From: Folioceros fuciformis
Lineage: Eukaryota
Direction of reading: 5' to 3'
Length of the DNA stretch: 38,280 bases
NCBI GenBank assembly: GCA_049999805.1
Contig: JBNGIO010006370.1
Span: 204,657 to 242,936, forward strand
The position numbers and the translations under genes are program-made. Shown here in pieces: positions 1,894-32,554 of the stretch. Numbering within the stretch: position 1 is the stretch's first letter; the number at the start of each line of letters is the position of its first letter. The notes under the pieces were generated by a model. It was not told the DNA's origin. It saw only the letters and a list, made by a program, of their open reading frames with translations, and searched no databases.

Positions 1894-1919
1894 GGGTTTA
1901 GGGTTCAGGGTTTAGGGTT
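1894..1919 (+). repeat. Short plant telomere-like (TTTAGGG) tract / telo-box
   Basis: GGGTTTAGGGTTCAGGGTTTAGGGTT, about 3.5 units. Confidence 0.65.
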
Positions 1920-5060: not shown

Positions 5061-5122
5061 CTGATACCATGTGAACTCTCGTAGCATAGACTACATGCAT
5101 CTATGCAGGCATGACCAGAAGT

Positions 5123-5480: not shown

Positions 5481-8400
5481 AGCCCTTAAAAACCTTCAAC
5501 TCTGCAAGATGCGAGATGGTGACTCAGTAGAAAAGCACATTGCTACCTTCGGACATCTTGTTTCTAAGTTGGAGGGAACAACTCAGGAAGCCATCAAGGA
5601 AGATATGTTAGCACTCTATTTGATGCTTTCATTACCTGCCTCCTGGTCGAATTTTGACTTCGTACAACACCTCACAGGCACAAGCTCAAAAACTGGCGTC
5701 TGCTGCCAGGATTAAGCTGCCTCCCATGACCTTTTCTGAGTTAGTGGGAGCACTTCTTCAAGAAGAGGCCACAAGAGGTGGGCCTAAGGATGGGAAACAG
5801 CAAGCACTCTACACCTCAAACAAGGGCAGAGGAAACAAACCATACCCTCGAGGCAAAAATACTACACCTGTTGTAGGAAGCTCACAAGGAGTTCCCTCAC
5901 AAAAGAAACCCAAAAAGACCGGGAAATGCAACTGGTGCAAAATTCCCGGCCATTGGGAAAATGAGTGTCGTAAGAAGCAGGCTAGCATACCTCGCAAGGA
6001 GGGCAATGCGAATGCTGAAACACACGTCGTAGTAAAGAAGCAATCCTCTCCTTCTGCCCTGACAGTAAGGGTAAGGGAGTTTGCTCAACCTCTAGTCCTT
6101 CCCACATGTTTATCTGCTATAGCAGAGTCTAAACCAATTCAAGAATGGTACTTAGACACAGGCGCAACAGCGCACATCTGCTTTGATAGAAGGGCCTTCG
6201 CAAACTACAGACAAGTAAAGGATCAGTTTGTCTATTTAGGTGATGATAGGGCATTGGTATCTCCAGGAAAGGGCACAATGTTCCTTCCTATCCCCTCGGG
6301 GCTAAAACTGTCCTTTACCAATGTTTATTATGTGCCTGGAATGACCAGGAACCTCATTTCTGTCAGGCAACTAAACATAGACAACAATAGTCACATTCTG
6401 TTTACCCCCACAGAGTGCCAGATCCTAGATGCTTTTGATCATCGCAAGGTCTTAGCATATGGATCCTCTGACCACGATCTCTTTTGCCTTCACTTGCACA
6501 GTATTCTTGTGCAGTCTCATTTGACGTCACAAGGTGACCTATCACCTTCACATCAAATAGACAAAGCCATATTATGGCACAATAGGTTAGGTCATCCTCA
6601 TGGAGCTAAGCTACAAAAACTGGCTACCAGTGATCTATATTATGATGGAAAGATTGGCACTCTTCCCACCTTACCCCTGTGTGAAGCTTGTGTGTTGTCT
6701 AAGTGTCACTAAGCAGCCTTCAAAAACAGGACTCCACATAGAGCTTCTGATGTTCTTGAGTTAGTCCACACTGATATATGTGGGCCATTATCACAGCCTT
6801 CAATAGGTGGTGGCAAGTACTTCTTAACCTTCACTGATGACAAGACAAGGTTTGTCATGGCTTATATCTTGAAGGCCAAAAGTGAAGCCTTCTCTCAATG
6901 CAAAACTTACTTAAAATTTGTTGAGAGATGGACAGGACAATAGCTCAAGACTCTCCGCTCGGATAACGGAGGAGAATTCACATCTAACGAATTTCAAACC
7001 TATTGTGCAGAGGAGGGTACTGGGCGACAGCTCACCGTTGTGTACATGCCACAGCAAAATGGCGTTGCAGAACGCCTGAATTTGACTTTACAGGAGATGG
7101 TTTCCTCCTTGCTCCATCAAGCTACCTTACCATTTCCCTATTGGGCTAAGGCCCTAATGACAGCTGTTTATCTAAGAAATAGATTCGTAGGTCAAACACC
7201 ATATGAGGCTTTTTTGGCAGGAAACCGTCTATCTTTCATCTTCGAACCTTTGGCTGTGTTGCTTATGCCTTCATTCCAAAGGAGAACCGAAAGAAGCTAC
7301 CTGCAAAAGGCAAAAAACTCCTCATGATAGGTTACACTGAGGGCATAAAAGCTTATAAACTTTATGATGTCCCTCAAAACAAGGTGATCTATGCACGAAG
7401 TGTTACCTTTGCCGAAGGACGTGTTTGGACATCAGTGGGAGCACCTCCCACCTCCCATGATAATGCTGAACTTGATCTGTCTGTTCTCCCCAACGTCACT
7501 TTCTTTGCTGACTCAACACCTGAGGAGATTGCTCCTGTAGGGGGGGATGAGCATAATCAAGACGAGCATGACAATCAAGTTGAGCATGACAATCAAGTTG
7601 ACATAGCAAAGGACGATGCCTTTGCTGATCTTGATGAACAGCAGCAGCAATCTCCCATTGCTGTTGAGCTACAACCTGAACCAGACATACCCGATCTTAG
7701 TGACGATGAAGTCGCAGATGATGCAGCTGTTGTCCGGGATAGTGATGATGATGCTGATGTAGTTGAACTACCTGTACGTCGATACCCTGCAAGAGAAAGT
7801 CGTGCACCTGATTATTATCAGTCACATAATTTCATGACAAGTTCAGCACGTGCTCATGCTATTAGTCTGGACTCGATAGAGCCTCGTACTTATGAAGAAG
7901 CCATGAGTAGGCCAGATGCTGCAGAGTGGAAAAAGGCCGTTCAGTCTGAGTATGATAGCCTGATCAAGAATGGCACTTGGGAACTCGCAAAGTTACATCC
8001 TGGACGCAAAATGGTGTCCTGCAAATGGATATTTAAGCTCAAGGTTAAAGCAGATGGTACCTTTGACAGGTACAAAGCTAGACTCATTGCTTGAGGCTTT
8101 TCCCAAGTACCAGGTCTGGATTATCTGGAAACTTATGCTCCTGTCGTGAAGCTAGCCACGTTTTGTGTTCTCTGCGCAGTAGCAGCACACCATGACTATG
8201 AGTTGGAAATGTTTGACGTTGAAACAGCTTTCTTACATGGCAAGCTGGATACTAAAAATAAAATAAAATAAAAAAATTATATGCAGCAACCGATGGGCTA
8301 CATAGTAAAGGGAAAAGGGGACATGTCCTTTGCCTAATCAAAACCCTATATGGCTTAAAACAATCTGCTCTTGAATGCAATGTAGTTTTAGATGAGGAGC

Positions 8401-9486
8401 TGCAAGCTCTAGGCTTCATCAAATATGTTTTAGACAGTAGCCTGTATGTTTACAGGGCTGGAGACACTGTATGTTACCTAGCTGTGTACGTGAATGACTT
8501 GATACTCGCATGTAACAGTCCCTCCTTTATCGCAAAAATTAATGGCCTCCTATCCAAGAAGTTTGAGATGTCAAACTTAGGAGCTTTACAAAGCTGCCTT
8601 GGCATACATATTTAAAGAGATCGAAAGAAGAGTTTTAATTGTCACTCAACCAAGATACCTTCTTGATAGCGTAGACCAGCTTGGACTCAAGGACGCGAAG
8701 CCTGCAGTCACACCATTACCAAGTGGACTTAAGCTGAGTAAATCCATGAGCCCACAACCACAATCTGAAAAGGACAAAATGCTTCCTATCCCTTACCGCA
8801 AGGCAGTAGGAAAGCTTATATATGCAGCAAACGCTACTCGTCCTGAAGTGGCAAATTCCACAAGTGTGCTTTCACAATACTTGGAAAACCCTGCACAGGA
8901 GCACTGGACTTGTGTTAAAAGAGTATTTCGATACTTAAAGGGAATAGCGCAGTATGGAATTGTTTACAAATACAAACCTGATGCTGCTCTTGAATTAGAC
9001 GTATATACCGATTCAGAATATGCTGGTGATATAGACAGTAGAAGATCAGTCTCTGGATACATCGTCATGTTTGCTAGAGGACCAATCTGTTGGTCTAGCA
9101 AGAAGCAACCAATTGTTGCCCTCTCAAGCACAGAAGCAGAATATCGTGTCCTCACATCCGCTTCTAAAGACGTTGCTTGGTGCAAACTACTCTTCAGTGA
9201 ACTTGGACTACCTCTACCTACCTACACAGTGATTAAAATAGATAGTCAGGGATCTATAAACCTGGCAAAAAACCTTGTTCATCACTCAAGGACAAAACAC
9301 GTTAAGGTAGAATATCACTTTATCAGAGATTTGATCAAGAGTGGACAGGTTGTACTCGAGTATGTGCCAACAACATAAAACCCAGCAGACATTATGACAA
9401 AAGCCCTAGGTAGGGAGCTGCACGAGAGGCACATGAAATGTCTTAGAATGGGGAAGCCAAGTGACTTCCTCAGTCTTGCAGTTTAA
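5481..9486 (+). pseudogene. copia gag-pol polyprotein with multiple stops/frameshifts
   Basis: ORF pieces 5509..5715, 5654..6712, 7040..7327, 7324..8094, 8599..9378 in GAG-PR-INT-RT-RH order; (AAAAT)n insertion at ~8254-8277. Confidence 0.92.
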
Positions 9487-9495: not shown

Positions 9496-10528
9496 CTACC
9501 AGTCATATCCCCAGTATACGCTGCCTTCATCCACATTATGAACAAGCACACTTGCATGACTGCCAAAAGAATCAGGCTCAGAGGAATCAGAATCATGTTC
9601 AGAGGGAGTGGTAAAGCTCTCATCCGATCTTGGAGAGTTTCTCTTCCTACGCTCCATGTAGGAGATTCTCTCCTCAGTCTCTAGGCTATGCTCTTCCTCC
9701 AGCCGCAATTCAGATCTTGCAGGGCAAGTGGGAGCTTGTTGGAGAATTGTAAGAAGAAGGCAATGGGGATACTGACATAAAAGTAGACAGGGCACACTTA
9801 CTGTAAAAGCTGACAATATGATGCTGATACTCACGATAGTGCTCTATCCTTACTCGTACCATCTTCAGGTTTGTGTAAGAGCACTTATACCACAGAGGGG
9901 TACAAGGAATAGCAAAAGAACTAAGGCTCACAATCTTGGTTTCTTCATCAGAGTGTGTCGGAACTGGAAATCTCATCAACACAGCAGGCCTATGGTCAGA
10001 ATCAGCATACGCGAACTCACCAGCTTTGAAGCAGAGCTTGTCACTATGATCGCTCCAAAGAGGCTTCTCTTTAGGGGTAGCCGTCTTACGGGGAGCTGTC
10101 TTACACGCAGCGCCAACCTTTGTCTTACAGTATGAAGCATCTGACGAGCGCCGCTGATCAAGATAAGCCTTGGTGGTGCCGCGTAGTCTTCCTCGCGAAC
10201 GCCTCCCGCTGCTGTCACCTTGAGGAGCAGGAGCAGGCATCTTTGTTGATCCTTGCTGCTGAGAGGAGGCAGCTGTTCTAGTCAACTTGCTCACAAACCG
10301 CCCTAGCTTGTCGTGATGGCAAACGCGGCGCTTTGCAGGAGGGGAGTCACTGGCTGAGGACAACATCTTGAGATCAGAGATCCTACGCCCCAATAGCTTA
10401 CAAATAAAGGACTTGAAGCGAGGAGGGATGCTATAAGGGTCAGACACACCTATTACCCAAGTTTGTACAGATACGCTCCGTCGCGTTCCTTTAAAGGCAA
10501 AGGTGTCGGCGCAACCCAGTACATGCAC
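9496..10528 (-). CDS. Antisense ORF(s) (272 aa + overlapping 112 aa) in the copia 3' region, unknown function, AT-hook-like motif
   Basis: ORFs 9710..10528 and 9496..9834 fill the space between the RNase H stop and the PPT; motifs PPAKRR and RRSRGRLRG. Confidence 0.4.
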
Positions 10529-10635
10529 ACTGCGAAGCTTTCAGCTCAGCTCTCAGTCTTACACTCGACCCATGTTAGAGAAGGCGAAGAGGAGACGTCC
10601 GAATCATCATAATCCAACAAGTGGGAGTGAAGGAG

Positions 10636-10848
10636 TATTGATGTTGGCATAATGAGATTAGCGTTATATTATATCCAGTTTCATATAGTGTGTATAGACT
10701 TAACATATCTTATTTCTTCGCTAGGGTTACGACTGTTAGTAATAGTCACACCCATTCATAAATAGTTAAGTTCAAGTTTCAGTGTTAATGTGACTCTCTC
10801 TTATATACATATACACAATATTATTTTTATAATAAATCTACATCTACA
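10636..10848 (+). repeat. Probable 3' LTR of the plus-strand copia
   Basis: Follows purine tract AAGTGGGAGTGAAGGAG; TATTGA (degenerate TGTTGA)...CTACA; partner LTR absent. Confidence 0.65.
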
Positions 10849-11340
10849 TGTAATTTCTTATTTATCCTACGCCAACCTCTCAAACCTCTCAGTATCAGTT
10901 TCCATTGCTCGAGTGGGCTCTGGCTCCACATGCTGCACTGCACCGCCCTTCCTTCTCATTTGCCTCGCTGCCTGCCCCCTTGCTGCAGAGCCTACTGGTT
11001 TTCTTCGCTTTTTCTGCGGAGATGTTGTTGTGGAGACATACAAACGTTGTTTTCAACGGTGTCAGTAGTCAGAGCTTTCCCAAAGGATTATATCTACCAA
11101 AAACACCCCCAAAGCGGTCAGCTCTGCATACAAGTAACAGCGTGGGAATTCAACTCTCCCACTTGAGTTATCCTTTCTTCCTCTAGCGGTCCGGGCATTG
11201 GGAGAAGCCTCTTCGCCAGCGGGTGGTGGAGGTCGATGTCCATCTCTTTCAGTGTAGTGACGAGACAACTCTCGCGCAAATCATTTCCCGACTTGCCTTT
11301 GCTTTCGTAATCGGGGAAGTGCCTGAACATCCTTGTCCAC
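10849..11340 (-). pseudogene. Possible 5' part of the transposon's second (divergent) gene
   Basis: Coding-like segments MFRHFPDYESK...EEERITQ and SPQKKRRKPVG...ETDTERFERLA (NLS-like), cut by the LTR at 10848; no recognisable domain. Confidence 0.3.
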
Positions 11341-11545
11341 AAGCAATAGTTTGTTGCTCCGATGACCAGCTGCCATTGCTGTGCAACCAAAAATATGGAG
11401 AGTTGAAAAGCACGTAGTCTTTTCTGGAGAAGGAAGATGTTGTAGACGAAGTGCCCATGCAGCGGATTTATGCAAGACAGAATTCGAAAAGTCACTGTGC
11501 AACTCAAAAAAGAATATCCAAAGTAGCCGACCGCCAATGCATTTA

Positions 11546-11705
11546 TAGCATGATCAAGGTCATATCAGGCGGCGATTCTCGCTGAACAGCTAGTTCTATT
11601 TTGGCTCAAACGTTCAAATTGAATTAGCGTGATCAAGGTCGTATCAAGTGGCGATTCTCGCGGAATAGCTAGTTCTATTTTTGCTCTAACGTTCACATTG
11701 CATTA
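11546..11705. repeat. 79-bp tandem duplication between the divergent transposon genes
   Basis: TAGC(A/G)TGATCAAGGTC...GGCGATTCTCGC...AGCTAGTTCTATTTT at 11546 and 11625. Confidence 0.9.
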
Positions 11706-11810
11706 AACACCTGCGCTTTGGGACTTGGTTGCGAGGCTTTGTTACAACGCTGCAAATTTGAAGCAAGTCTAGCCGAAGTTCATACTCAACATACTTTCTT
11801 TTCTGCTTCC

Positions 11811-14068
11811 ATGGCCAACAAACCTTTATCATCATGTCGCGGTGATGAGAAGGTCTGTGATGATATCAGCGATGAAGGTTTGGAAGAACGAACGTTGCGT
11901 TGCGTTTATGGTTTCAAATGAATTTGATTTGCTTATTTATTACTAATGCGTGGATGATTCTTATCTCCAGGAGACCATCCTTGCAGACATCAATCTGATG
12001 AGTTGAGGTTGTCGCCAATCCGACTAAGTCTTCTGAACGAAGTTCATAGTTGTCCAAGCCCGTCACCTCACGACAACCATTTGTAGGCGCAGTGATGAAA
12101 ACGACACCTCTAAGGGGAAACGCTGATGTCTATAGGTTCTCCGGAGGGAGTGGCACATATGGTTGGGGCCTAGAATGCGAATGAAGAGGGGCCTTGCTGT
12201 CAGGAGTGTTAAGGCTCAAGACAAACACCAAGCCAGCGGTCGAGCTTTAATCGCTAGCCGGCGTCGGAATCCATGATTGAAACTCCCTTAGATCATCGAT
12301 GAGGTCGGCGAAAGAGATCTTCAACAATACTAGAGGCTAAGTGTTCAGAGCTTCGCACTTCTCTTGATTATAGGAAGATATGTTGTGCGAGACAATGTCT
12401 GAGATTGCTTGGTAAACCAGGATTTAGAGAGTTGTGATACTGTTTTCTGAAGATGAGCAGGATAGAACAAGAAACCTTTTTGCAGGCACATTTTGACATC
12501 GATAAGATTGAGAACGCACATGCAATCGCGTAACCATTCTTAATCGGGTCGGGAAAAATAAGGTGTTGTCGAGATGCTTTCAAAAGAGTGTATTGTATTG
12601 GTTCAAATAGATATGAGGGAGTGAAAGATCGAGCTTGTGGGAACATTTTTTGGTCTGGAGCTATCCGCTCAGAGCCACCGACTCTAGGCTATGCCGCGTG
12701 CGTATGGATGGATCAATTGTTTCTCCNNNNNNNNNNNNNNNNNNNNNNNNNNNNNNNNNNNNNNNNNNNNNNNNNNNNNNNNNNNNNNNNNNNNNNNNNN
12801 NNNNNNNNNNNNNNNNNNNNNNNNNNGCTTAGAGCCACGGACTGTAGGCTACGCCGCTGCTGCGTGCGTATGGATGGATCAATTGTTTCTCCTTATTATG
12901 GAGTGTATGCCAAATGTTGAAGTGTATCATTTGCTAGACTCGTACATAAAGAAGGAAATTTTCATGGACTACAAGTGGCAAATGAGCAGAGCAGAACAAT
13001 ACAACATTTTGTACTCCTACTTTTGTCAGCTATGGGCCTCGCACTTCCCAAAAGTGCACATTCCAAAAACCAACAGATTTTCCTTGTGTTCTATGTGCGA
13101 TTATCTGAAGAGAAACATTCGCTCTGAATCAAATAAACAAAAACAAGGTACAAATTAGTTTTTTTGGTTTATGATACTTAACTAAATAATGTTTGTTGAA
13201 CATGTTCGTATTCCGATGCTCTATACCTTGACATAGGGAGTGCACCGGTATACTGGCGCACTCCAGCCGAGTCAGGACAAGAGCGCCGGTCAACCGGCAC
13301 ACTTTTTCAGGTGCATGAGAAGTGTGTTGGTAGACTGACGCACTTCTCATGATTCAGATGGATTGCGCCTGTATATCGACGCGCGACTCAGGAGTCTGCT
13401 AGAGTGCACCGATATATTGGCTCACTCTTGCAGTCAAATGTGAGTGTATGCTGATATAAATTGGTGGGCGGTCTGTGGGTGGTATTCGTCCATGACAGAA
13501 GGTTTCGAAAGCGACTTAAAAGTACATCGACAAAGACTAAAGGCGTAGCGAGAGAAGAGTATCAAGCATTGTGTAAAATGCTATGGTGATCTGGCTAAAT
13601 ACCTTGGGTTGTCCATAGATGGTATGGATCAGCAAAAAACTCAAATTCCTCATTTTGTGCGACTTCCAAAGGACTTGGGGGTTTTTACTAGTGGGCCACA
13701 CTCACAACCAGGTGGACCAGGTGTTCTCTCGGTTTTCAATGGCTCTGGGAAGGAAAGAGGCTCTCAATTTACCTGCACTCATTGCTGTTATGCAGAATGC
13801 TCATACACCAACGCCAGCAGTGCATGAAGTGAAGGATGTGCCAGACTTCCGGTGATTTGTGTGGCCTACACCTTACAAGAAAGCTGGTTATTAGAATATA
13901 TCAACTGTTCACCCGTTGCACAATATTTCATTCCAACACTAGTTCAAGATCACAAGGGAGAGATGAGGAGAATGGGGCTTTAAAACAGTGATGCGAGGGA
14001 AGTAGTATTGTACAGATGAATATTGGTCACTAGATGAGGGTATCGAGTTTCTCAAGCATATTCCGGAC
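11811..14068 (+). pseudogene. Sola-like/DUF7869 transposase, 5' part (intron 13148-13498; internal deletion near 13678)
   Basis: CCARQC...CCRDAFKRVYCIG; ECMPN..YHL..K..F.QLW..HFPKVHIPK..RF..CSMC. After the GT-AG intron the frame continues to LSIDGMDQQKTQIPHF, then FLLVGHTHNQVDQVFSRFS. Start position uncertain; 100-N gap at 12727-12826. Confidence 0.8.
13239..13428. repeat. Degenerate ~41-bp-spaced array of the same GTGCGCCGGT..ACCGGCGCAC palindrome inside the transposase intron
   Basis: AGTGCACCGGTATACTGGCGCACT (~13239), AGCGCCGGTCAACCGGCACAC (~13282) and three more degenerate copies to ~13428. Confidence 0.75.
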
Positions 14069-14285
14069 TGAGAACAATGTGATTAGGGAGCATAGCAATT
14101 CTCAGAGCAATTCTCTTATGTATTTGCAGTTGAATAATAAAAAGTATCTTTCTACATCAAGGCATCTGCCTTAAATAGTAGTTATCTTGTCTACCCGACT
14201 TGCCCTATATATTCACACCGTTTTGTCTGAGTTTACCCTATATATTCGTCTAAGTATAATTAGGAACGCTATATATGCTCTAACA
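14069..14285 (-). repeat. 3' LTR of the minus-strand copia
   Basis: Direct repeat of 26129-26345. Confidence 0.96.
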
Positions 14286-14958
14286 CCCCGTCTTAAACCA
14301 CACGCTAACGGCCTTAGGTTTAGGGCAATCGCCGCCGTACTCGAAATGACCTGGGTGTAGGGAAGGCATTGATTCATTCTTCGAGTGCGGGGCTGAGAGT
14401 GCTCAGCAGCGGGCGGAAGTGCTTGTGCGCCATCTTCGTGGATCCGACTTGCAGGCAGTTGTAGGCGAGGTTGTGGGTGGTGACTTGCGGCTATATGGCG
14501 CCTATGGTGTGCGGCTGGTACTGTAGGGTGGCGCCAAGGCAGCGTAGTCACTACTTAGCAAGAGTTGTCTTGTGGGCATCTGCCTTTCGGAGCTAGTGGG
14601 TCGCGATCGTGAAGGTCGATGTGAGGCGCGCAGTGTTGTAGTGCCTGTGTGGGTGTGCTCAGGCTATGATGTAGTTCCTTCCCTCGCAAACTTGTGGACT
14701 GCGGCCTGAGAGGCCTTGCTGATGTATACTTGAGCCGACTGTATCGGCGCTACAGCTTCATCCTTCTAGTAGGTGGATGGTTGTGCTGGTGTTTTGCTTG
14801 TCCCCTAGCTTCTTATGGCCTGATGGTGTTTTTCTTACGCAGCTAGTGGGAGCCAGGGTTGCGTTGCCTTGGCCGGTGAGAGGGTGGCGAGTGTGTTCAG
14901 TGCAAGAGCCGACCAGTGGGGGGCGTCTCAAGCTTCCCCCTCTCAGCAGCCCTATCCT

Positions 14959-15926
14959 GTTAGGGTTCAAGATAGGCGGAGAAGTCGCCTAGGCCTAGCC
15001 CTCTCATGTGCAGGTAGTGGGCGTGCTTTGGCAGGCCTTTGGTGAATATGTCCGCCGTGTTTGCCTCTATGCTAGTGTAGCTGACCTTGATGATACCTCT
15101 GGACACCACATCTCATATGTAGTGGTGTTGTATCTCTATATGTTTTGTTCTGGCGTGGAAAGTTGGCCTCGCTACTAGCTCTAGGGCTGAGGTGTTGTCG
15201 CACAGGATGGGAGTCGGGTCGATCTATGAGTGGCCAAGGTCAGAGAGAAACGCTCTCTCCCATTCTGCCTCTTTAGCTGCTTCCGTTAGTGACTTGTATT
15301 CAGCTTCAGTGGCGCTGAGAGCAATGGTGACATGTTTCTTGCTGCTCTAGGTGACTGCTGCAAATGCAAGCAAGAAGCAGTAGGATGAGATGCTACGTCT
15401 GGAGTCGGAGTCGGACGCCCATTCCGCGTCTGAATAGCCAGATCAATTGAGCTGCTGCTTTCCGCTCCTCTGGTACATTAAGCCATAGTGTGCTGTGTCC
15501 TTAAGGTAGCGGAAAATCCATTTCACTGTTGTCCAGTGCGCTCTCCTAGGGCAGTCCAGGAACTGTGATACAATACTAACTGAGTACTGTATATCAGGCC
15601 TAGTTCAAATGGGGACGAAGATTAGGCTGCCGACAGCATGCCTATAAGGTACGCCTTCCATGTCTTTCAACTCATTAGGTGTCCGTGGACTCTGTTGGCG
15701 GGTCAGCTTGGTGCCCACCGCATATGGAGTGGTGGCAGGTCTGGCCTGGCCTGATCAAGATGAAACTTCAGTAGGATCTCGTTGATGTACTTGCTTTGAT
15801 GGATATACATGATCCCAGCATCTCGTGCGGTAGCAGTTGGATGCCCAGTCAATATTTCAGTTCTCCGATGTCCTTCATGTCGAACCTCTTGTGTAGCTTT
15901 GTCTTCACTTCTGCTAACAAATTGTC
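14959..15926 (-). pseudogene. copia RT C-terminus and RNase H
   Basis: LLAEVKTKLHKRFDMKDIGELKY, PYRHAVGSL, IALSATEAEY, FHARTKHIEI, NTADIFTKGL in broken frames. Confidence 0.88.
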
Positions 15927-15933
15927 AAACATT

Positions 15934-17657
15934 GTCTACCCCAAACGGGCGGATTCCGCCATTTCGGGATTCGAGAGATTTTGACGCTCAAAATTCGTGT
16001 CAGATATCCGCATTTTCATGCATTTTTGTCAAGAGATGCATAAATGTGGCCTAAAAGAGTGTTGCGTACGTCCGTAAACATCAATTTTTTCGAAAGTATA
16101 AGCAAATTTGCGGGTATCCTTGCATTCAAATACATGACAAAACTCCGTAATATGGCGGGTATCACGTAATTCAGGTGTTATCTGATTCCATGTAAGGTCC
16201 TGCATGTTTGAGCTATACCTCATATCAGTTGACCTTATTCTTGAAATTATCACCCGTCAATATCTGTCTGCATTTTCCAGAAAGGGTTACGGGATAAACC
16301 GCGAGTCAACCGGCCTAAAACAAGTGGAAGTGTGCCGTTAGACCAGCGCACACTTTGGTAAAGTGCGCCGGTTGACCGGCGCACAATACCAAAGTCACAT
16401 AAATGGCAAGTGGAAAGCGAAACTTGCATGCCGCTACATACAAAAGTTATCATAGCAGTTTGTACTTAATACTTTTATCTAAACGTCTAACAAGTTTTTG
16501 TTATTTTCAAGCGGCAATGTATCCTGGTCGCGATTGAGGACGTATAGGTTTCTGCAAATCAGAGTCCTCGTTCGGGAGGAAAGCTGTTTTTGGCGGGCCG
16601 GAGAAGCGGTTGTTGCCGATCAGCAGCATGGTGCAACTAGGGAGGCGCCTGCTTCCCGCGGGATGCTGCCGTTCAAGAGATGGTTGGACAGGTCGATGAA
16701 GTCCAGTCTGGGGCTACCCCAGAGCTCCTTGGGGAAGCTGCCGCTTATGTTGTTGCTGACGATGTGGAGGCCATGGAGGGAGCTGCAATTGGTGTAGGAG
16801 GCTGGGGTGGGCCCGGAGAAGGCGTTGGACTGGATGGCGAAGGTGCTTAGCTGGCCGCCATTGCATGCGGCCCAGGGCACGGGCCCGGAGAAGTTGTTGG
16901 ACGTTATCTCGAAGTCCTTTGACGGGCTGCTGGCGCCGAAGGTCGGCGGGAAGGGCCCGCTCATTAGGTTGTTGAAGATGGTCAACTTGGTGAGCTTCGT
17001 CAAGCTGGCCATGGCTTCCGGCACGCTGCCTGTGAGCAAATTGTTCCTGAAGGAGAACAACATCAGGTTCTTCCACTCTCCCAAGTCCTACGGGAATTCC
17101 CCACTCAACTGGTTCCCAGCCCCAGAAAAATCCTCCATGTTCACCAGCTTCTCCATCCCGAGCGGATTCTAGGTCACATATTGACGGAATCCATCCTTCT
17201 TGGGCTCCGGTGTGCCAGTAGACCAAATATACAAAATCCGGTATATTATATACACCGGTATATTGTACAACCAAATATACAAAATCCCGGCCCCTGTGAC
17301 CGGCGCACCGGTATATCATATACAGTTCCGAGGCCAACCAGGATAACCCAGTTTTTGTGAGACTTAACTTGAACTCGTCCGTTACTAGAACATGAAGTAT
17401 TTTGAATAGCTTATGCGCCAGTCAACCAATGCACCATATATTTCAATTGTTAAATATCAAGTTTCGCGTAGAAGACTCACCATGTTTACTGCATTTATTT
17501 TGGTTTTATTGACATTTGGTGAATAAATAATATACGCATACATGTCGGTGGCCTTATTGTTTGTGAAAAGAGATCAAAGGTAGATATGGGGCGCGGATCA
17601 AGACAAATTTAAAAAGTGCAAAACGGGCTCTGTGGAATCCGCCCGTCTGGGTTAGAC
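15934..17657. mobile_element. Non-autonomous 1724-bp Sola-like derivative with 24-bp TIRs carrying a captured gene fragment (Pack-type)
   Basis: TIRs GTCTACCCCAAACGGGCGGATTCC (15934-15957) and GGAATCCGCCCGTCTGGGTTAGAC (17634-17657), 22/24. Left arm 15958-16595 is the reverse complement of 27050-27654. No exact TSD. Confidence 0.82.
16596..17168 (-). pseudogene. LRR receptor-like kinase ectodomain fragment (~8 plant-type LRRs; LRR-XI-like)
   Basis: GMEKLVNMEDFSGAGNQLSGEFP*DLGEWKNL...NNLLTGSVP...NNFSGPVP...SYTNCSSL...NNISGSFP..LWGSPRLDFIDLS; after a frameshift LIGNNRFSGP. Stop at 17088-17090. Confidence 0.9.
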
Positions 17658-17659
17658 CT

Positions 17660-18752
17660 TGTTGTGGTCGTTTGTGGCAAGCATCAAGTGCTGTGCATAC
17701 GTGTGGAGTGATTTCTTGCACCCAAGAACCACCCAAGGGGCCACACATTCCCCTATTGTCATTGCAGTCCTATGGTTCGCTCCCAAGAGAGTGAACTAGT
17801 GCCAAGGAACACTACCTATCACACTTCTACCTATCAGCCGGTCTATAGGTCTGTCCATACACTCACAACAAAAAGGCTAGAAGCCTAGCCTACCCCCTAA
17901 GTCAGCTCGCCCAACTCACACTCCTGTTCTTCAGTCCTTCAGCTCTTCTTGGTTCCCACTTCAGCCACTTTCTCCTTCACCTCAGCTCTTCAAGCTTCCC
18001 ACTTCAGTCCCTTCCTCTTCACTTCAGTCCTCCACCCTCCACTTCAACACACACTCCTGCACTTCAGCAGCTCACTCTTCACTTCTATGCATTTCACCCC
18101 AACTCTTCCTTTCTTTTCTTCAGCTTCCCCCTCCTGGAAATTAGGACACAATGGCTTCACTTCTTGCAGCCTCCAAGCATAATGTGGATCTAGGACTGGA
18201 TAGCCCTCCAGCTCACAGTCCTATTCCTTCACTTCAGCCAACCTGCGAATCATGTAGCCCTTGCGGATCCGGCCACAAGGATCTTGACAGCCCCGGGATC
18301 CCCACGTTCCCCTAGTGGCAAGGGGAATCAGGACTTTGGGTCGACCTCAACCGGCTCAGCGCCCTAAGCCAGGAGTTCTACCCACAAAGTCCGGGGACAT
18401 CACGCCATAGACCGCCCTCTCTCAATGGCGGCCTCTCCTCTTGTACCCCAACCCTCATCTCTCTCTCTAACTTAAACCATCCTACATCCGGTTCTGACCT
18501 AAACCTAACCTAGGTCTGACCTAAACCTAATCTAAGCCTGACCTAGACTTGATCCAGGCCTGACCTAGACCTGATCCAGGCCTGACCTAGACCTGATCTA
18601 GGCCTGACCTAGACCTAATTCTGATCGCAGCCTAACCAAAGCCTAACTCTAACCTACTCTTGCTTCTAATTGCCCATTGCCCCTTGACACCGTTAGCTGC
18701 CCACAATTATCAACCCCTCACATCTAGCAAAAATCAGGGGTGCCTCTCAACA
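17660..18752 (-). mobile_element. Probable ~1.1-kb LTR (3' LTR of a minus-strand element) with adjacent PPT
   Basis: TGTTG...CAACA termini; TCCCTCTCCCCTCCC at 18753-18767 is a polypurine tract on the minus strand; no second copy in the window. Confidence 0.55.
18495..18620. repeat. 22-bp (2x11) degenerate tandem repeat
   Basis: CCTGACCTAGACCTGATCCAGG-type units, about 5-6 copies. Confidence 0.85.
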
Positions 18753-18767
18753 TCCCTCTCCCCTCCC

Positions 18768-21700
18768 GAGTTAGATCATCTCCCCTCTTTTGATTACCCT
18801 GCCTTCTTCCCCAGAGTCTCCCGCCTTTAGGTCCTTCCCTCCTGGCCACGGCTGGCCAAGACTCCTGGCCCTAGGCTAGGCCTTCGGCCTACAAGCAACC
18901 AGGGTTGCTACTCATGGATGGAAAGCCGAGTGTCACTTATGTCCTTAGCGGACCACCCTCCAAGCTGCTGGACTGATGCCCTTGAGCGGATAGCCCAGGG
19001 CGTCGCGTCCTGGCATGGCACACACCATCCATCATCGCCGCAAGTAGCATCCGGCCCTCCGCCTGCGGTAGCGAGTCAGTTCCAACCATCTAACCGCGGA
19101 TGGCAAGCCGTATGCAAATTACGGCCACTGGCTGCCATGGTACAGGGGGTGTACTACCCTTGCCTTCGATGCTTGGGTGGGGCAGCCCACGCCCTAAAAT
19201 TGCCTGGCAGTAGTCTACAACCAGTGTTCCAGTGTCAGGCTGTCATCCTTGGAGTGTCCCTCGGGACACTCCCCTGTCTTTCCCCTGGGCAGCCGCCTAT
19301 CGGCTATTAGGCCTACTGGCTATCCAACCAGCCATTTGGCCAGTCTTCGGCTGCTAGATCCGGTCGAGACCATTCTGTCCAACTCGAAGGAACGACCATA
19401 CAGAATCGTCGATGGGGTCAGTTGATCTGCACTGCACCTAGTTTGACCGGGATTTGGGATAAGCCGCTATCCTTGGTTTGCAGTGCACTGAGTGCAAGTC
19501 CGTCCGCGCCTGGTGCTCTCGGATCCAACCGCTTATCCTCAGCCATCGCCTGGATTCGGCCATCACGCCGTGACTCCCCTAGCCCTGCTTCCAGCCAAAC
19601 TGCAACTATCCCAGCTGCTCAGTCTCCAGCTGATCGGGACTGGATCCAGTCAGCTCGCCTAGTTGTCGAGTCGCCTGCCGTTTTCCTGATTCAGCTAGCT
19701 AGCCAGCCGACCAGACTCGACTGGCCAGCCTGCCTTAGCCTGGATCTGGCCAGGCGACCAGCCTGTAGGCCGCCTACTGCTCGCTTGCAATTGGAACGGG
19801 CTGGGTTGCTGGCCAGACTCCTCACCGCCAACTCCTCACCGCTATCTCCAACCAGCAACCCCCTTGTTCGGCCAGCCGTCACGGCTCATCTCGGTTGCTC
19901 ACGGCCGAGCATTCGCCTAGCTAAGACAGCTAGCCAGGAAGATAGCCCAACCCCCCTCAGATCCACTTTGTCCCGCTTGCCCAACCAGCTAGCCAGAGAC
20001 CCCTAGCTGCCAGGTCGCCGCCGGCTGGATACTCCTGCAGCCTGTCTTGGCTGCTGTCCATGGCTGCCTATCCTGCCAACCGGGCCGTTCTATGCACGCC
20101 AGCCAGGGTCCATCCTCCAGAGTCCCTGGCCCAGGGTCCCTGGCCCAGCAGTCCTCCGGCGGGGGATGCTTGCCAAGCCTTAAGGGTCTCCCCCACAATC
20201 CCGATTTCGGGCTCGCCTCCTTGTTGCCGGTCGTCGGCCGGACCGTCTGCCGAGACCTGGCTAGGCGACCATTCCCCCCCCGAGTCCGGTCTGCTCGGCT
20301 TGCCTACCTTCATCCTAATCTACTCCTGTGGTTTGGCCTGGCTTCTAAATCATCTGACCCCAGCCGGCCACCATCCCGGCCCCTCTTGGCTGTTTCTGGG
20401 CCGGGCGATCGGCTACCTAAGGCAGCCAACCAGGCCACTATGCTCAGCCGAGACCAGCCACGCCGCCTAGCATCTCGCTGTGAACCTACCCTGACCAGTT
20501 CCTACCAGCCAGATGGCATGCTTGCTCCTCTAGTTGTCGGGCCGCCCCAGCCAGTGGATCCGCACCCTGATCGGCCCCTGACAGCCTGGCTGCTGCTCAG
20601 CAGCTGGTCACTGCTAAGCCAGCCCCCCTGCTACTCGCCTTGCCAATCCAACTCGGCGCTCGCCATGCTCGGAGTGTCCTGCCGGTCAGGGTCTGGCCAA
20701 GCCTAGCTCAACCCTCCAAGCCTGCCGATCAATCTTGCCCGCCATCCGGTCACACGCCATCCACGGCCGCTGCTGCCCGTGGCCTAGCCAGCCTGCTGGC
20801 TGGCTAGATCCAGCTTGGAAGCCAGCCGGATTTAGTAAGCCCCCCTACCAACCGGTTCGTGTGCCTGGACTCGCCCGCTGGCCAGCCCGGCCTGGAACTA
20901 GCCAGGCAGCCTGCCCGCTTGCCCGACTCTCGTGGCCGTCGCCTACTTGCCCAGGCCAATTTGCTAGAGGCCGCTAGCTGGCCCCAGACCCAGCCAGGCA
21001 GGTTCGCCTGCCAGTCGCTTGCCCACCAGCCTGCCGCCAAGCTACACGGCTGCTACCTGGACGTCTGGCCGGAACCGCCTGCTTCTGGCCTGCCCGCTGG
21101 GTGGTTGGCGATCCAGCCAGCGCCTGTCTGACCCCATCGCGACCAGTCGCCATGACCAGACCCTTGCCCAGCCGATCAACTAGTTGCTTGGTTGGATCTG
21201 CCCTGGCTAGACCCCATACCACCCTGTCCCCGCTGCCGCTACGAGGCCGCCTTGCTACAGCGGCTGGTGGCCTGCAACCAGGCCAAGCTGCTTGCTTGCA
21301 GCCTGACCGAGTTGCCGTCTACGTGGTAGACCCCGTCGGGACCTTAGCCGGGCCCCGGCCTGCCAGAGCCGCGGCTTGCCGTGGCCAACTGGCCAGTGCC
21401 ACTAGCCGACCCCCGGCCTCCATATCCATCCCGGGAGCCAGCCACCAACCTTGGCCTCCCAGATTCCCTGCCGTCCAACCGGGCCGTCCAGGTTGTCTGG
21501 CTGGATTCCCTGCAGCCCATCCGCCAGCCAACCCTCCTACCAGCCTACTGCCAGTCGCTTGCCCAGAGGCCGCAAGCCAGCTCCTGCCTTCTAAATCCGG
21601 CCAGATCCAAGCCACCGCCCTGGATCCCGCCAGTCTGCTAATCTGGCCACTTGTGCTCTGGTGATCCCTATCCACCCGATGCACCAAGGCAGCGTCCCGA

Positions 21701-21986
21701 CACGTCCATCTCCGTCCCCAGCTTCCACTAGCAACAGCCGAAGGACCCCCAGCTCGCTTTCCACGACGTCCCAGGTTTCCTATTCCTCCGTTACCTTACC
21801 CCGAGGAACCAGAGCCCGTGTCCTATCTACCACACAACCTACCTACCCTATCGACTCACCATCAATCTAGCCATTATTCTAACCTAACCTTCCAACCTTT
21901 CCTCTACAACACTCACTCACAAATCCAAAAAAAAAGGAAAACCTATCATTTCCCAGGGGTCTGTTCAGCATGTGGAGTCCACAATA
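18768..21986. other. GC-rich, C-skewed non-coding segment of presumed retroelement origin
   Basis: Dense CCAGCC/GCCTG/GGATCC motifs, only low-complexity ORFs; ends where copia RT (QMDV) resumes. Confidence 0.45.
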
Positions 21987-24986
21987 CGTCCATTTGCTGG
22001 AGGTCCAGGTTGAATTCTGTAGCATAGGCAAGGATAAGGCGGATGGACTGGTTGCGAACTACGGCTAAGAACGTTTCTTGGTAGTCCAGCCCCTCCACCT
22101 AAGTGAACCCCCGAGCCACTAATCGTGCTTTGAATCTAGCAACTTCTCCCTTGGCATTTAGCTTAAGTTTGAATGTCCACTTGCAGGATATAGCCTTCCT
22201 ACCAGGTGGGAGGTCGACGAGGGTCCATGTATTATTCTTGACCAGAGATTTGTATTCGTCCTCAAGTGCTGATCGCCACTGCTCACACTCAGGGCTACTG
22301 AATGTCTGAGTGAGTGTGGTGGGTTCTGCAGGTAGGAGAGGGCCTGAGTTGAGCCCAGGAAAAGCATGTGTCTTGAAGTCAGTGGAGGCATAAGGTGGCT
22401 CCCTCCATTCAGATGGGGGAGGTCTATGGCGCGTGGAACAGCGCGGGGGGTCAGACCCAGGCGCAGACTCGGCAACCTGAGTTGGAGGCTCAAGGGGGTC
22501 AGCTGGCTCAGCTGCATCGTCAGCCATCCCCAGGTCAGCTGTCCCCAATTCCCCCTCTGCATCCAATATAGGTTGATGCGGGACTGCGGCGGGGGCTAAG
22601 GCAGTAGGATCAGCAGGGATGGCATCAGGTGGTGCTATAACAGGAGGGGGTGCTACCTATGCAGGTTCATCATCATCAGTGGGGAAAACGGAGGGTTGGT
22701 TGGCTGGCTGGATGGGATCCACTGAAGGGGGTTCCCCTAGAGCGGGGGAGCAGGGCTCTATGAAGGTGACACTCTTTGCGAGCACAATGCAGTTGGCGTT
22801 AGGGTTGTATAACTTACATGCCTTAGAGTGCTTGTTGTAGCCGACCAGAATGAGTGCCTTTGAGCGGTTGTCCAACTTGTGTCTTTTCTCTGCAGGGATG
22901 TGGGCATAAGCACCGGATCCGAAGACTCGGAGGTGCAAGAGACTGGGCTTCTTGTTCCAGAATACCTCAAAGGGAGTCTTGGTCGGAACAGTACTAGTGA
23001 TGACGCGATTGAGGATGTAGGTCGCCGCCACTATAGCCTCGGCCCAATAGCCCTTGCCGATAACAACATACTTCTTGTCATTGAGAGCAGAGTCTGATTC
23101 TTGCGTTCTGACACACCGTTCTGTTGCGATGTGTAGGGCACTGTAAGCTGGTGCAAGATTCCTGAGGTCTGCAGGAGATCATTAAAGGATGAATTGACGA
23201 ACTCGGTGCCATTGTCAGTTCTGAGGGTCTTCAAGAGCTATCCTGATTGCCTCTGGGCTATGGTGAGCTAGTCCTTGAAGCAGGTATAGGTGTCACTTTT
23301 CAGCTGCATGGGGTAGGTCCATGTGTAGCGGCTGTAGTCATCAGTGACTGTTAGGAAGTAACGAGCACCTCCAAGGGAGGGCTCATGAACTTTGCCTGAG
23401 ATGTTGGCATGGACTAACTCAAGGACTCGGGTGGCCCTCTGTGCAGGTGAATCAGGAAATGGTGACTCCTTCTGCTTAGCAAGGATGCAAGATTTGCACA
23501 CAGGTAACTCCTTGGAGCATTTAGGAAGAGGTTCTCGGTGGCACTTTAGGGCTGACATGTTAATCAATTTTGACCTATTAACATGCCCTAGACGAGCATG
23601 CCATAGCAGGGCCTGCTATGCCTAACTTAGGTTAGGACCTGTAGTTGAGTGGACGGCCTCTGTGTGCAGGTTTGGACTGAAACAGGTGATGTTAAGCCTA
23701 TACAAGTTGCTCTCAGGCAGTCCCTCAAAGGCACATGTGTGGGACATAGATGACGTCTGTCAGGGTTAGTTCAGTGCCATCATGAAGACAGAAGACACAG
23801 GTACCCTTGCCCTCAATACGCAGACTTGTCTTGCTCTGCTCATCTGCAAGAAATACCTAACCACCTTTTTGTGTTAGGTCAAGGTACTAAAAAGTTCCCT
23901 CTTCTTGCAGATATGGGTCGTTGCCCCAAAGTCGAGGTACTAGCAGCTGTCGTCACTGAGGGTGCTGGACAGGCAGACTGTTAGTATCGTCACGGGGGCC
24001 TTCGAGTCTCTCGATTTGTTCTGCCTCACAGCCACGTTTGCGGCCGACTTTTGCTGTCGTGAGGGCTCGCGAGCCCTTCCTTTTCGGCACTCTCTGGCCC
24101 AGTGGCCAGGGAGGCCACACCAGTTACAGTTGCCGGATCTCTTAACGGGGCTTGTAGGTTCCCCCCTCTGTCCCTACATTTCTGTACTTCTGGGTTGGGT
24201 TCTTCCCTTGCGGAAGTTTGTGGCTAATGCCTTCTCCCTTATTCCTGAAAGTAGATGAGAAGGCGCGACTTTGCTCCTCCTAGAATAGCGCTCCGATCTC
24301 CTCCAAGGTGATGGTCACTATCTGACCTGAGGCAGCTGCGGCAGCGCGTATCGGGCCATTTTGGTTCGTAACAAAGGTCTGGTAGGAGGCAGGAAGGCTG
24401 CTCAGTAGTTGGGCGGTAGCATCCACCTCTGACATCTTCTGTCCTGTCATCGCAATGAGCTGGGCACGTAGGTGCCGAAACTTGCTGACATGTGAGGACA
24501 CCTTTTCTCCTTCTTTCATTTTGAGGGAGAAGAATTCCTGCCTGACTGCACATAGCGTCATCATGTTCTGGATCTTGTATGTCTTTTCTAACTGGTCCCA
24601 TATGCCATGTGCAGATGTGAGGTACTCTACCTCTAGGACCGAGTCTGCGTCCAACCCTCGATAATCACGGCAACAGCAATAGCATTATGTTGTTCCCACT
24701 TGGCGATTTCATCGGCTGTAGGGCTAGCGTTGGGGTCAGGTTTGAGGTAGGTCCCGTCAACAACGGTCCAGACTCCCTTGGCCAGCAAGGTGGCCCTCAT
24801 CTTGACTCTCCACAAAGTGTAGCCAGACCCCTTGAACTTGTGATAGTCCTTCTCTTTAAGTTTTGAGGTGAAGGTAGGTGTGCTTGACGATGCTGCCATG
24901 GCTGGTTGTTGGGCTGGGGTGTTTAGGGTTAGGTGTTGGAGACCGCTAATAAGGGAGTTGAGTTGTGCAGGGGTGACCATGTACAC
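21987..24986 (-). pseudogene. copia gag-pol (GAG, PR, INT, RT N-terminus), degenerate
   Basis: gag (LWRVKMRATL, FFSLKMKEGEKV), knuckle CNWCGLPGHWAREC, YLDFGATTHIC, WHARLGHV, LRTDNGTEF, QQNGVSER, CKWTFKLK, FKARLVARGF, QMDV. Confidence 0.92.
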
Positions 24987-26128
24987 CTAAGCCGACCAGA
25001 GGAGCTATGGCTATAGTGGCACATGGAGGTAGGTGTGCACGTGACTCCTGCTATTGTGCTCTCATTCCCTTAGCAGCTGATGTTGGGACGTACGTGGCGG
25101 AGCCTAGCTAGGCACAGAGTTCGGATGCCATTGGGTTGATGGCTTCTAGGTCCTGCGCCTAGTTGAAGGCTTCGCCACTGACGCCTGCAGCATGGGTGCA
25201 CCTAAGGTGATGGGGAGCTAGCCCAGCCTGTTAGGCCCGGATGGGGAAATAATATTTATTGCTATTATTTCCGAAGGGGCTGGCCAAGGGGTAAGCCCTA
25301 GGATTTGAGTCTAGGTGGGCCGTTACTAACCATCATGTCCCAACGACGTGAAGAGGTTCACCAGGTGGCCAAATGGGGAGGCGTCGAGATCGATCTTGGT
25401 AAGGGGCGTGAGCAGCGTTGCACCGGTTCGTGCCTGGGGCGCTGAGCCTGCTCGTTCGCCAGAGTCTATGCTCCTTGGCAGCGGAAGTGTCTAGGGCCCA
25501 AGGCCGTCTGGTCCCGAATTGGTAAGTGAGTCCCCTGAATTCCGCCTCTGATGATCAAGGTTCTTGGGGTAATCTGCAACCCGGCAGATGCTCTCACAGA
25601 TTTTGTCAGTAGTGGGAGATTCGGGGATCTTAAATTCAGGGTCGGGGTGTTGGGCGTGGATTTTGGAGGAGGTCTGATACAACAGCAAACTGGACAGCAA
25701 TCCCTCCACGCGGCTGAGGATACTCTGCGACCTGACGAGAATTTTCCTCAGCCCCTTGTGTAGGTTGATGTCTATGTTGCACTAGTGCTTGCCAGGTGTT
25801 CCAGGTGCTAGCGAGGGCCCCCGAGTGTTAAACGGGTAGCGCGCTAGCGTGGATTGTTCGTAGGAACAGTGGGAGCCGGAGGCACGGCCGCGTTGCAGGG
25901 GGAGTTGCGGGCACTAGGGTGGAGAAACCTATCGCCAAGGGCGCCGGGCTCTTCCTCTTCTAGGGATGCGTGCACTTTCTAATGAGAGGTGAGCCGAGTG
26001 ATCAAGTGGGCAGCCTACGGTGACGAGTCCCTTTGCAGGCGCGCACTCAAATCTGCCCCTACTGAGAGCGCCCTGCCTCGGCATGATTCTAGGATTCCTC
26101 CGGGGGTTTGAGCATGGCTCTGATACCA

Positions 26129-26345
26129 TGAGAACAATGTGATTAGGGAGCATAGCAATTCTCAGAGCAATTCTCTTATGTATTTGCAGTTGAATAATAA
26201 AAAGTATCTTTCTACATCAAGGCATTTGACTTAAATAGTAGCTATCCTGTCTACCTGACTTGCCCTATATAGTCACACTGTTTCGTCTGAGTTTACCCTA
26301 TATATTCGTCTAAGTATAATTAGGAACGCTATATATGCTCTAACA
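26129..26345 (-). repeat. 5' LTR of the minus-strand copia
   Basis: Direct repeat of 14069-14285, adjacent to the PBS. Confidence 0.96.
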
Positions 26346-26350
26346 CGGAC

Positions 26351-27157
26351 ATAGATATCAAAGCTGCTCCATTTACACATTTACAATCCAGGAGCAAAAA
26401 ACAAAGGACAGTTCTGGACAATGTCGTTGAATATTATCTAGCACAAATCAGATCAAAACTAGAGCTGAGATTAGGACAATACTTAAGAGCAGGCGAGAAC
26501 TTGTGGTGGGATGGGTTTTGGGCAAAGCAAGAGGCTATCGTGCATTCAATCAACTCCGGTTTAGACAAAGACCTTGATTCTCCTTGACGGTGGTATAATC
26601 AAGAGGCAGCAGAATTATTGAACGCACTCATAACTGTTCCAGACGAAATCGTTGTTCACAATCCACGGATCCGTGAGATTCCCACAAGAAACATGTATGT
26701 GGGTGCATACCGTAGGGATGCAGACCTCAGTGACGACCGCGAAAGTTTGAATAGAGACATAACATAAATAGAAAAAGGGCATATGATTGTTGTCCCTTGC
26801 AAGTCTGACGAAGTCTTAGTGGCTGATATTACATGCGAAAAATCATATGTGAAAGTGCACTCGTGGGTCACCAAGTGTTCAGATGCTTTTGAGGGTCGTT
26901 ACCAAGAAGAGATGATTTTACCACATGAAGATCCGCCAAGAGGGTTACGAGAAGGTCACAGATGTAGGCCAAGCAGAAGACTTTGGAAGCATATAGATAC
27001 ATTATTCATTGAAGACACTTTCATTCTAGCATATGGATTTGATTTGACACGCCAAAAACAGCTTCCCTCCCGCACGAGGACCCTGATTCGCAAAAACCTA
27101 TACGTCCTAATCATGACCAGGATACACTGCCGCCTGAAAATAACGAAATTTTGTTAA
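26351..27157 (+). pseudogene. Sola-like transposase, 3' part
   Basis: Removing the copia and one TSD gives ...EFLKHIPD|IDIKAAPF...WWDGFW... in frame through ORF 26783..27157 (FDLTRQKQLP), with two in-frame stops. Confidence 0.75.
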
Positions 27158-27935
27158 ACGTTTAGATAAAAGTATTAAGTACAAACTGGTATGATAACTT
27201 TTGTATGTAGCGGCAAGCAAGTTTCGCTTTCCACTTGCCATATATGTGACTTTGGTAGTGTGCGCCGGTCTATCGGCGCACGTCAACTTGTTTTAGGCTG
27301 GTTGACCAACGGTCTATCCTGCAACCCTTTCTGGAAAATGCAAACAGACATCAACGGGTGATAATTTTCAAGAATAGGGTCAACTGATATGAGGTATAGC
27401 TCAAACACGCAGGACCTTACATGGAATCGGATAACACCTGAATTACATGATACCCGCCATATTACGGGGTTTTGTCATGTATTTGAATGCAAGGACACCC
27501 GCAAATTTGCTTATACTTTCAAAAAAATTGATGTTTACGTTCGTACGCAATACTCTTTAAGGCTACATTTATGCATCCCTAGACAAAAACGCATGAAAAT
27601 GTGGATATCTGACACGAATTTTGAGCATCAAATTTTCGCGAAGCCCGAAATGGCTTTAGAGAACAAGAACATCACGATGATGTGTTTGCACCTAGCAGAT
27701 TGGTAAACATGTATGCCGAGTATGCCGAGTGTGATAGCTTGTTACTATGTATGTGTGTTTGGAGAGAAAAATCTTAAACAAAAGAGAATTTTTATTATTA
27801 AAAGCACTAATACAATTCTACTTAAAATATTCTTTCTAAGATGTCTATTAACATATGTTATACCCCTTGGTCTTAGTCATCCTAATTGAAAACAAATCGT
27901 AAGCGAGTGTTGATTATATATATATTCTATAATTA

Positions 27936-32530: not shown

Positions 32531-32554
32531 TAGCAAGAAAGGCAGAAAGGAGCA

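Follow-up and report, generated by a model that had tools for sequence, protein, structure and literature searches.

The window analyzed here is a stretch of 38,280 nucleotides (nt) of Folioceros fuciformis (GCA_049999805.1, JBNGIO010006370.1:204,657-242,936, forward strand); all coordinates given below are window positions. It contains a nest of transposons. A DNA transposon encoding a DUF7869 transposase, referred to as the larger transposon, is split by a 12.3-kb copia long terminal repeat (LTR) retrotransposon. The reverse transcriptase (RT) of this copia is in turn interrupted by a small element, the subject of this work, in which a piece of a leucine-rich repeat (LRR) receptor kinase gene lies between two arms bounded by terminal inverted repeats (TIRs). 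The features are collected in Table 1.

Table 1. Features of the window, with the small element first, then the transposons that surround it and the neighbouring genes (TSD, target-site duplication).
Feature	Positions	Strand	Length, basis or remark
Small element	15926-17661		1736 bp; ends set by the RT reading of the flanks
Left copy of the probable TSD, TTGT	15922-15925		same RT codon register as the right copy
Left TIR	15926-15957	+	32 nt; 24-nt core at 15934-15957, outer 8 nt from the RT register of the flank
Left arm	15958-16595	-	inverted 3' end of the DUF7869 transposon family
Cargo, LRR receptor kinase ectodomain fragment	16596-17168	-	Pfam LRR_8, LRR_1, LRR_4
Right arm, presumed 5' subterminal region of the family	17169-17633		short shared motifs
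Right TIR	17634-17661	-	28 nt; 4-nt gap relative to the left TIR
Right copy of the probable TSD, TTGT	17662-17665		same RT codon register as the left copy
Host copia LTR retrotransposon	14069-26345	-	gag, integrase-linked SH3 and RT-start domains (Pfam)
Larger transposon, upstream transposase part	12372-14068	+	tblastn of 153 relatives; Pfam DUF7869
Larger transposon, downstream part	26351-27654	+	C-terminal exons, stop at 27157, then 3' subterminal region
L-type lectin receptor kinase	519-3813	-	Pfam; broken into several frames
L-type lectin receptor kinase	29794-31971	-	Pfam; open 706-residue frame from the first ATG

The ends of the small element carry the TIR core GTCTACCCCAAACGGGCGGATTCC, which at 15934-15957 is identical in 22 of 24 positions to the inverted sequence at 17634-17657. 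These are the only two matches of the core in the window when up to 3 mismatches are allowed, and none occurs in 100 dinucleotide-preserving shuffles of the window. The 22/24 repeat over 24 bp that an earlier note had read from this DNA is thus well founded. Without gaps the inverted repeat extends to 26/30. That note had seen no exact TSD. This is correct next to the 24-nt repeat, where a check by eye finds no exact duplication of 2-10 bp. It does not hold for the ends as revised here (15926 and 17661), since TTGT is present on both sides once they are shifted outward by 8 nt on the left and 4 nt on the right.

The revised ends come from the reading of the copia RT in the flanks. Remnants of RT and RNase H of the copia lie on the minus strand at 15000-15932 and 17658-17747. 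The upper flank (17658-17747) ends in the motif after the RT active site, and the lower flank (15852-15932) corresponds to the next RT block, with RNase H further down. Both flank peptides were scored by Smith-Waterman alignment and 2000 shuffles, with the RT of a second copia of the window as reference. The score of the lower flank was reached by 1 of the 2000 shuffles, and Pfam aligns this flank to positions 180-201 of the RVT_2 profile. Placed on the second copia, the flanks cover a common stretch of 5 residues and 1 nt, 16 nt in all. In this fixed 16-nt register they agree at four consecutive bases alone, ACAA (TTGT on the plus strand). The leftover bases, 8 nt on one side and 4 nt on the other, both start with the inverted triplet CAA and lengthen the inverted repeat; the full TIRs of 32 and 28 nt then stand a 4-nt gap and 3 mismatches apart (reading by eye). 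In a simulation the chance of a four-base run in register was 0.03, and that of such a run together with inverted 3-nt termini was 0.0004. Excising the element with one TTGT leaves the RT frame open, with the spacing observed in the second copia. We therefore consider TTGT the probable 4-bp TSD of the small element.

As the flanks are consecutive copia RT codons and the two copies of the 4-bp duplication occupy one codon register, the small element entered the copia RT as one piece, and the one-piece insertion inside RT implies that the LRR block is not the remnant of a resident gene. The earlier note had taken this DNA for a non-autonomous element whose TIR-bounded arms enclose captured genic DNA, a view supported by the consecutive RT codons and by TTGT in register.

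The left arm is the reverse complement of 27050-27654 in the larger transposon, with 551 of 604 aligned bases identical (91%; Kimura two-parameter (K2P) distance, in which all divergences are given here, 0.094). The alignment has 35 gap columns, chiefly due to one additional 33-nt palindrome unit in the small element. The arm begins at the base adjoining the TIR and reaches into the last 38 codons of the transposase, which with their stop occupy 16479-16595 on the minus strand; in the larger copy 35 codons are found after a 1-nt difference. This tail is the true C-terminus of the transposase family, because relatives align as far as 27121. The last 4 nt common to the small element and the larger copy are GGCG at 16592-16595, the CGCC at which the earlier note had seen the LRR and transposase parts overlap, a putative microhomology. 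These 38 codons are all the transposase that the small element contains, and tblastn with 153 DUF7869 relatives gave no match within 15926-17661.

The 573-bp cargo is recognized by Pfam as LRR_8 (E 1.6e-11) and, read in three frames, comprises about eight LRR units of the plant type with one in-frame stop and one frameshift. Its GC content is 0.592 against 0.425 in the left arm and 0.412 in the right arm; by composition it is foreign to the arms. It lies in sense orientation relative to the lost transposase gene and out of frame with the retained tail. Thus the two inner parts that the earlier note had outlined, an arm of about 640 bp that is the inverted 3' end of the larger element with its last transposase codons and a piece of about 570 bp of LRR receptor kinase ectodomain, are both borne out. 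The cargo is most likely an inert pseudogene fragment, given the stop, the frameshift and no evident promoter of its own.

A 155-residue open stretch of the cargo compared with longer proteins gave 198 matches at E<=0.001 among 1164 candidates. Among the 120 listed, the named matches are mostly plant LRR receptor kinases (HSL1-, CEPR1- and MIK-like), with a top identity of 39%. Local blastx against the same 120 proteins reached at best 38% over about 170 residues, at about 255-430 of kinases of about 950-1000 residues. The similarity to angiosperm kinases is no greater than that to a lycophyte kinase. A word-index protein search found no near-length relative of the LRR piece, and the window holds no other LRR DNA. 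With neither a close protein nor further LRR DNA in the window, protein databases seem to cover the host lineage poorly. The parental LRR receptor kinase, whose identification the earlier note had called for, was thus not recovered by these searches.

The right arm shares short motifs with the family. The 22-nt palindrome GTGCGCCGGTnnACCGGCGCAC occurs 11 times in the window at <=3 mismatches and never in the shuffles. Six copies lie at 4393-4668, two at 13240-13302 inside the larger element, one in the 3' end of the larger element, and two in the small element, both in its left arm (16330-16351 and 16363-16384). The family palindromes had been attributed to the right arm in the earlier note, and this stands in part: at the same tolerance none of the 11 full palindromes is there, whereas one exact 12-nt half-site TGACCGGCGCAC is present at 17297-17308 and a repeat search detects degenerate copies. 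A 10-nt half-site has 24 matches in the window at <=1 mismatch (1.0 expected), one of them an exact right-arm copy at 17299-17308. The 14-mer AATATACAAAATCC appears twice in the right arm (17226 and 17274) and elsewhere in the window just at 4266, beside the palindrome cluster. By sequence, these shared motifs loosely tie the right arm to the DUF7869 transposon family.

The cluster itself (4266-4668) comprises the six palindromes with a 42-bp period plus the 14-mer, with no TIR nearby; it may represent a further piece of the DUF7869 transposon family. Two TIR-like motifs lie beside the junction of the right arm and the cargo: CGAGCGGATTC at 17159-17169, matching the TIR core at 10 of 11 positions, and 17186-17203 (78%). 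They may be subterminal binding sites or capture microhomology, and we retain them as a candidate lead only.

The larger transposon is identified by its transposase. Pfam assigns 13619-13852 to DUF7869 (PF25273) with an E of 5.8e-15 and 55.8 bits, for a gathering cut-off of 26. An exhaustive HMMER search (E<=0.001) collected 186 protein relatives, and the domain is present in all 18 long relatives examined. With 153 relatives as tblastn queries against the window, the 199 matches all fall in 12372-14080 or 26348-27121, collinear over the copia. For instance, the residues of one relative up to 297 stop at 14074 and those from 295 pick up at 26348. This copy is itself defective. About 90 residues between the IDGMDQ and GHTH blocks are missing, among them the conserved LQLDN block, which is the second catalytic one, and the gene has frame changes and a run of N (assembly gap) at about 12727-12830. 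Its 5' end was not found, either with 13-16-nt patterns, by reading of 10500-12560 or in local alignments. The larger element that the earlier note had set beside the small one is thus no complete counterpart: the copia divides it, its second catalytic block is gone, and it ends without a TIR.

The host copia has LTRs of 217 bp at 14069-14285 and 26129-26345, identical at 209/217 positions (K2P 0.038). It is flanked by the TSD CGGAC (14064-14068 and 26346-26350), and a copia-type primer-binding site (PBS), TGGTATCAGAGC, adjoins the right LTR at 26117-26128 on the minus strand. Its RT is interrupted twice, by the small element and by a GC-rich insert of about 4.2 kb. This insert (about 17750-21950, GC 0.54-0.65) replaces roughly RVT_2 positions 84-150, contains an 11/22-bp tandem array at 18464-18639, and has no Pfam match in its 49 frames of >=50 residues. 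At the grass substitution rate of 1.3e-8 per site per year, which may not fit this host, the small element moved within about 1.5 million years if its entry postdates the integration of the copia. The bound would not apply had the element already been in the copia when the latter was copied.

Taken together, we consider it likely that 15926-17661 is a non-autonomous Pack-type derivative of the DNA transposon family with the DUF7869 transposase, the Sola superfamily being the most likely one. It shows four of the five features listed for Pack-TYPE elements, i.e. TIRs, a probable TSD, the absence of its own transposase and an interior derived from a host gene. For the fifth, further copies or an autonomous partner sharing the termini, the window offers one larger relative, which has no TIR.

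The small element would keep the parts that a transposase needs in cis, namely TIRs of 28-32 nt and about 0.5-0.65 kb of subterminal sequence per end bearing the 22-nt palindromes and short repeated motifs. Its interior would have been swapped for the 573 bp of LRR receptor kinase ectodomain, oriented as the lost transposase gene. The whole unit was then moved by cut-and-paste, presumably by a transposase acting in trans, into the copia RT, duplicating TTGT. Uptake of the cargo would be earlier and at another locus. It may have occurred by filler synthesis in double-strand-break repair after excision, or by fusion of neighbouring terminally deleted copies bracketing the gene, as described for Pack-CACTA.

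Several observations weigh against this proposal. One copy of the small element is seen, in a search that covered this window. Its TSD is 4 bp long, was found post hoc once the ends had been shifted by 8 and 4 nt, and needs a 4-nt gap between the TIRs. The upper RT flank is weak when taken alone, its score being reached by 107 of the 2000 shuffles; it is nevertheless collinear with the lower flank and directly upstream of it on the same reference. Pfam does not recognize the upper flank peptide, and BLASTP of both short flank peptides against the second copia gave no alignment. The donor LRR receptor kinase is missing from the matches (none above 39% identity and no near-length relative).

Three further observations against it bear directly on the family assignment. 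No TIR follows 27654 in the larger copy: the homology ends exactly at the inner edge of the TIR and the sequence beyond is unrelated. No further TIR copy was found anywhere in the window by searches with 13-16-nt patterns and with the core. The right arm (17169-17633) has no alignable homologue in the window and, in local alignments to three regions, shows short motifs only; it fails to align to the larger element. These same facts would be expected if the TIRs and the right arm belonged to an unrelated TIR family, with the 638-bp DUF7869 piece and the LRR piece both carried side by side as cargo. We regard this explanation as unlikely. The captured DUF7869 piece would need to stop, by coincidence, precisely at the terminus of its donor element, and the right arm has an exact 12-nt half-site, degenerate palindromes and the 14-mer of another palindrome cluster. 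Moreover, a 4-bp TSD fits Sola, and terminal deletion by aberrant excision, documented for Pack-CACTA in an excerpt of PMC6379663, would explain by analogy the TIR-less larger copy.

It is quite improbable that a plain non-autonomous element inserted in the copia and that the LRR DNA was added later on site as break-repair filler, without ever being mobilised. Nothing speaks directly for this sequence of events, except that with a single copy the transposition with cargo aboard is deduced and not observed. It requires an extra event at the same place, no other LRR sequence exists in the window as a nearby template, and the cargo replaces exactly the interior between the arms, as is usual in Pack-type elements and in those with internal deletions. 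Finally, the earlier note had named as its own refutation a resident LRR receptor kinase remnant between two independent transposon ends; such a chance juxtaposition, for which one could invoke the missing TSD next to the 24-nt repeat and the receptor kinases of the window, is very improbable because the block interrupts the RT coding sequence of a copia whose LTRs, TSD and PBS are intact, because the RT codons resume in register on the far side, and because the kinases of the window are lectin kinases with no other LRR DNA present.

Returning to the Pack-type derivative of the DUF7869 family, we then considered its superfamily. The balance of evidence moderately favours membership of DUF7869 in Sola, on account of the 4-bp TSD, the motif pattern, the distribution, and the exclusion of other superfamilies. 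A point against this assignment is that it comes from TSD length, motif pattern and exclusion, not from an alignment to Sola1-3. An excerpt of PMC10741241 counts seven TIR superfamilies in plants and describes Sola as having DDD transposases, TSDs of 4 bp and TIRs that vary greatly, and as infrequent in flowering plants. A TSD of 4 bp is also given for Sola in the consulted portion of PMC3845634, together with Sola1 miniature inverted-repeat transposable elements with AWWT duplications. In a survey of 1007 plant genomes, active Sola was reported in three mosses and one fern only, with a TSD length of 4 in all four rows (PMC12973397 Table S2). Of 19 transposase relatives checked, 3 carry an organism name, in each case that of the liverwort Riccia sorocarpa.

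The family alignment has conserved IDGMDQ, LQLDN and GHTH[DE]xxDQ blocks with invariant or near-invariant acidic D, D and D/E residues. An AlphaFold model of a 594-residue relative has a mean predicted local distance difference test score of 73.4 (pLDDT) and a predicted template modelling score of 0.60 (pTM). Its Foldseek matches are NurA, a terminase nuclease, retroviral integrases, RNase HI, PIWI, IstA, and the Mu and Hermes transposases, all of which we take to be RNase H-like proteins. These matches are weak, with one at E<=0.001 and TM on the query <=0.18, and this also counts against the assignment. The model weakly suggests an RNase H-like core for the DUF7869 protein, which is compatible with Sola and not specific to it.

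The TSD lengths of other superfamilies are 8 bp for hAT, 3 bp for CACTA, 9-11 bp for MULE, 3 bp for PIF/Harbinger and 2 bp for Tc1/Mariner; Ginger has an integrase. No Pfam domain of hAT, CACTA, MULE, PIF or Tc1/Mariner and no integrase was found in any frame of the larger element. The matches to DDE_1 in the window are confined to a separate pogo-like element at 32969-35884. Thus hAT, CACTA, MULE, PIF/Harbinger, Tc1/Mariner and Ginger are ruled out: their domains are missing, the termini are not CACTA, and no duplication of their lengths stands beside the ends.

Other searches were negative within their range. A profile search against PDB sequences had no match below E 0.1, a word-index search of longer proteins with the transposase piece gave no match, and an Atlas search with a full-length relative, DUF7869 clusters excluded, gave a 0.78 match only. 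A literature search on the peptide motifs returned irrelevant word fragments only.

The two lectin receptor kinase genes are tandem paralogues with 74-89% DNA identity. An exact look-up of the lectin kinase protein in the protein collection had no match. The small element is about 12 kb from each of them, within two layers of dead transposons. The earlier note had seen significance in its landing in a receptor kinase cluster; this does not hold, since the flanking genes encode L-type lectin kinases and not LRR kinases. Domain shuffling at the locus, which that note had envisaged, is unlikely for an element in a dead copia at this distance from either gene. The position near the lectin kinase genes appears incidental and the biological consequence at the locus is probably nil.

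The rest of the window is also rich in repeats. The pogo/Tc5-type DNA transposon at 32969-35884 has long inverted ends, with no clean TA duplication at them, and DDE_1 and HTH_Tnp_Tc5 on the minus strand, split over two frames. Two further copia elements are present: the second, used above as RT reference, lies at 5624-9400 on the plus strand and extends from gag to RNase H, and the third (36056-38280) has its PBS at 36056 and runs off the end of the window. A PBS-like 12-mer at 5058-5069 on the minus strand stands beside 54-bp and 91-bp tandem arrays (4879-5399). Other tandem arrays have 31-bp units (1-212, at the window start) and 51-, 44- and 33-bp units (32253-32785, upstream of the intact lectin kinase gene). 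Rfam and tRNA scans of the window gave no matches.

We finally compared the small element with known systems. Like Ds-type derivatives of Ac, dSpm and defective P elements, which are internally deleted non-autonomous elements with filler DNA, it would have kept both ends, lost its interior, received foreign DNA at the deletion junction and been mobilised in trans. It differs from them by its filler, which is long (573 bp) and genic. Pack-TYPE transposons are likewise non-autonomous, with TIRs and a TSD, family sequence next to the termini, and a pseudogene-like host-gene fragment that lies internally, away from the TIRs. The differences are that the arms of the small element come from a DUF7869, probably Sola, transposon, that one copy is known, and that it is known from sequence alone.

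With Sola1-3 the shared characters are the 4-bp duplication, TIRs variable in length and sequence, a D-D-D/E-type nuclease, and relatives in bryophytes, animals and bacteria. In addition, the excerpt of PMC5751038 gives Sola as without a Pfam model in 2017, and such a missing domain is expected if DUF7869 is a recent Sola model. In contrast, the TSD is TTGT here, while AWWT is the preference of Sola1 in the portion of PMC3845634 cited above, and the termini start with CAA, against GGGTG or AACACC in the moss and fern Sola clusters (PMC12973397 Table S2).

Among plant TIR transposons, gene capture has been documented in five superfamilies: the part of PMC8903248 at hand describes Pack-TYPE elements of MULE and CACTA, plus hAT, PIF and Mariner in rice and maize. 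The word "Sola" occurs 0 times in the main text of that paper and 0 times in a review from 2026 on gene capture in plants (PMC13317346), "Pack-Sola" itself not having been searched for more widely. The small element is probably a Pack-type element of an additional superfamily, a gene capture ordinary in kind by a transposon family that is uncommon. It is a more tentative proposition that a DUF7869/Sola transposase was active in the host plant within about 1.5 million years and made gene-capturing Pack-type derivatives, this one being the first Pack-Sola; in a flowering plant it would also be the first indication that Sola moved recently in that group. If true, a sixth superfamily would mean that capture arises generally as a side effect of cut-and-paste repair and is not peculiar to certain families, and the termini, subterminal palindromes, TSD and Pfam model would give a handle on a superfamily hardly studied in plants.

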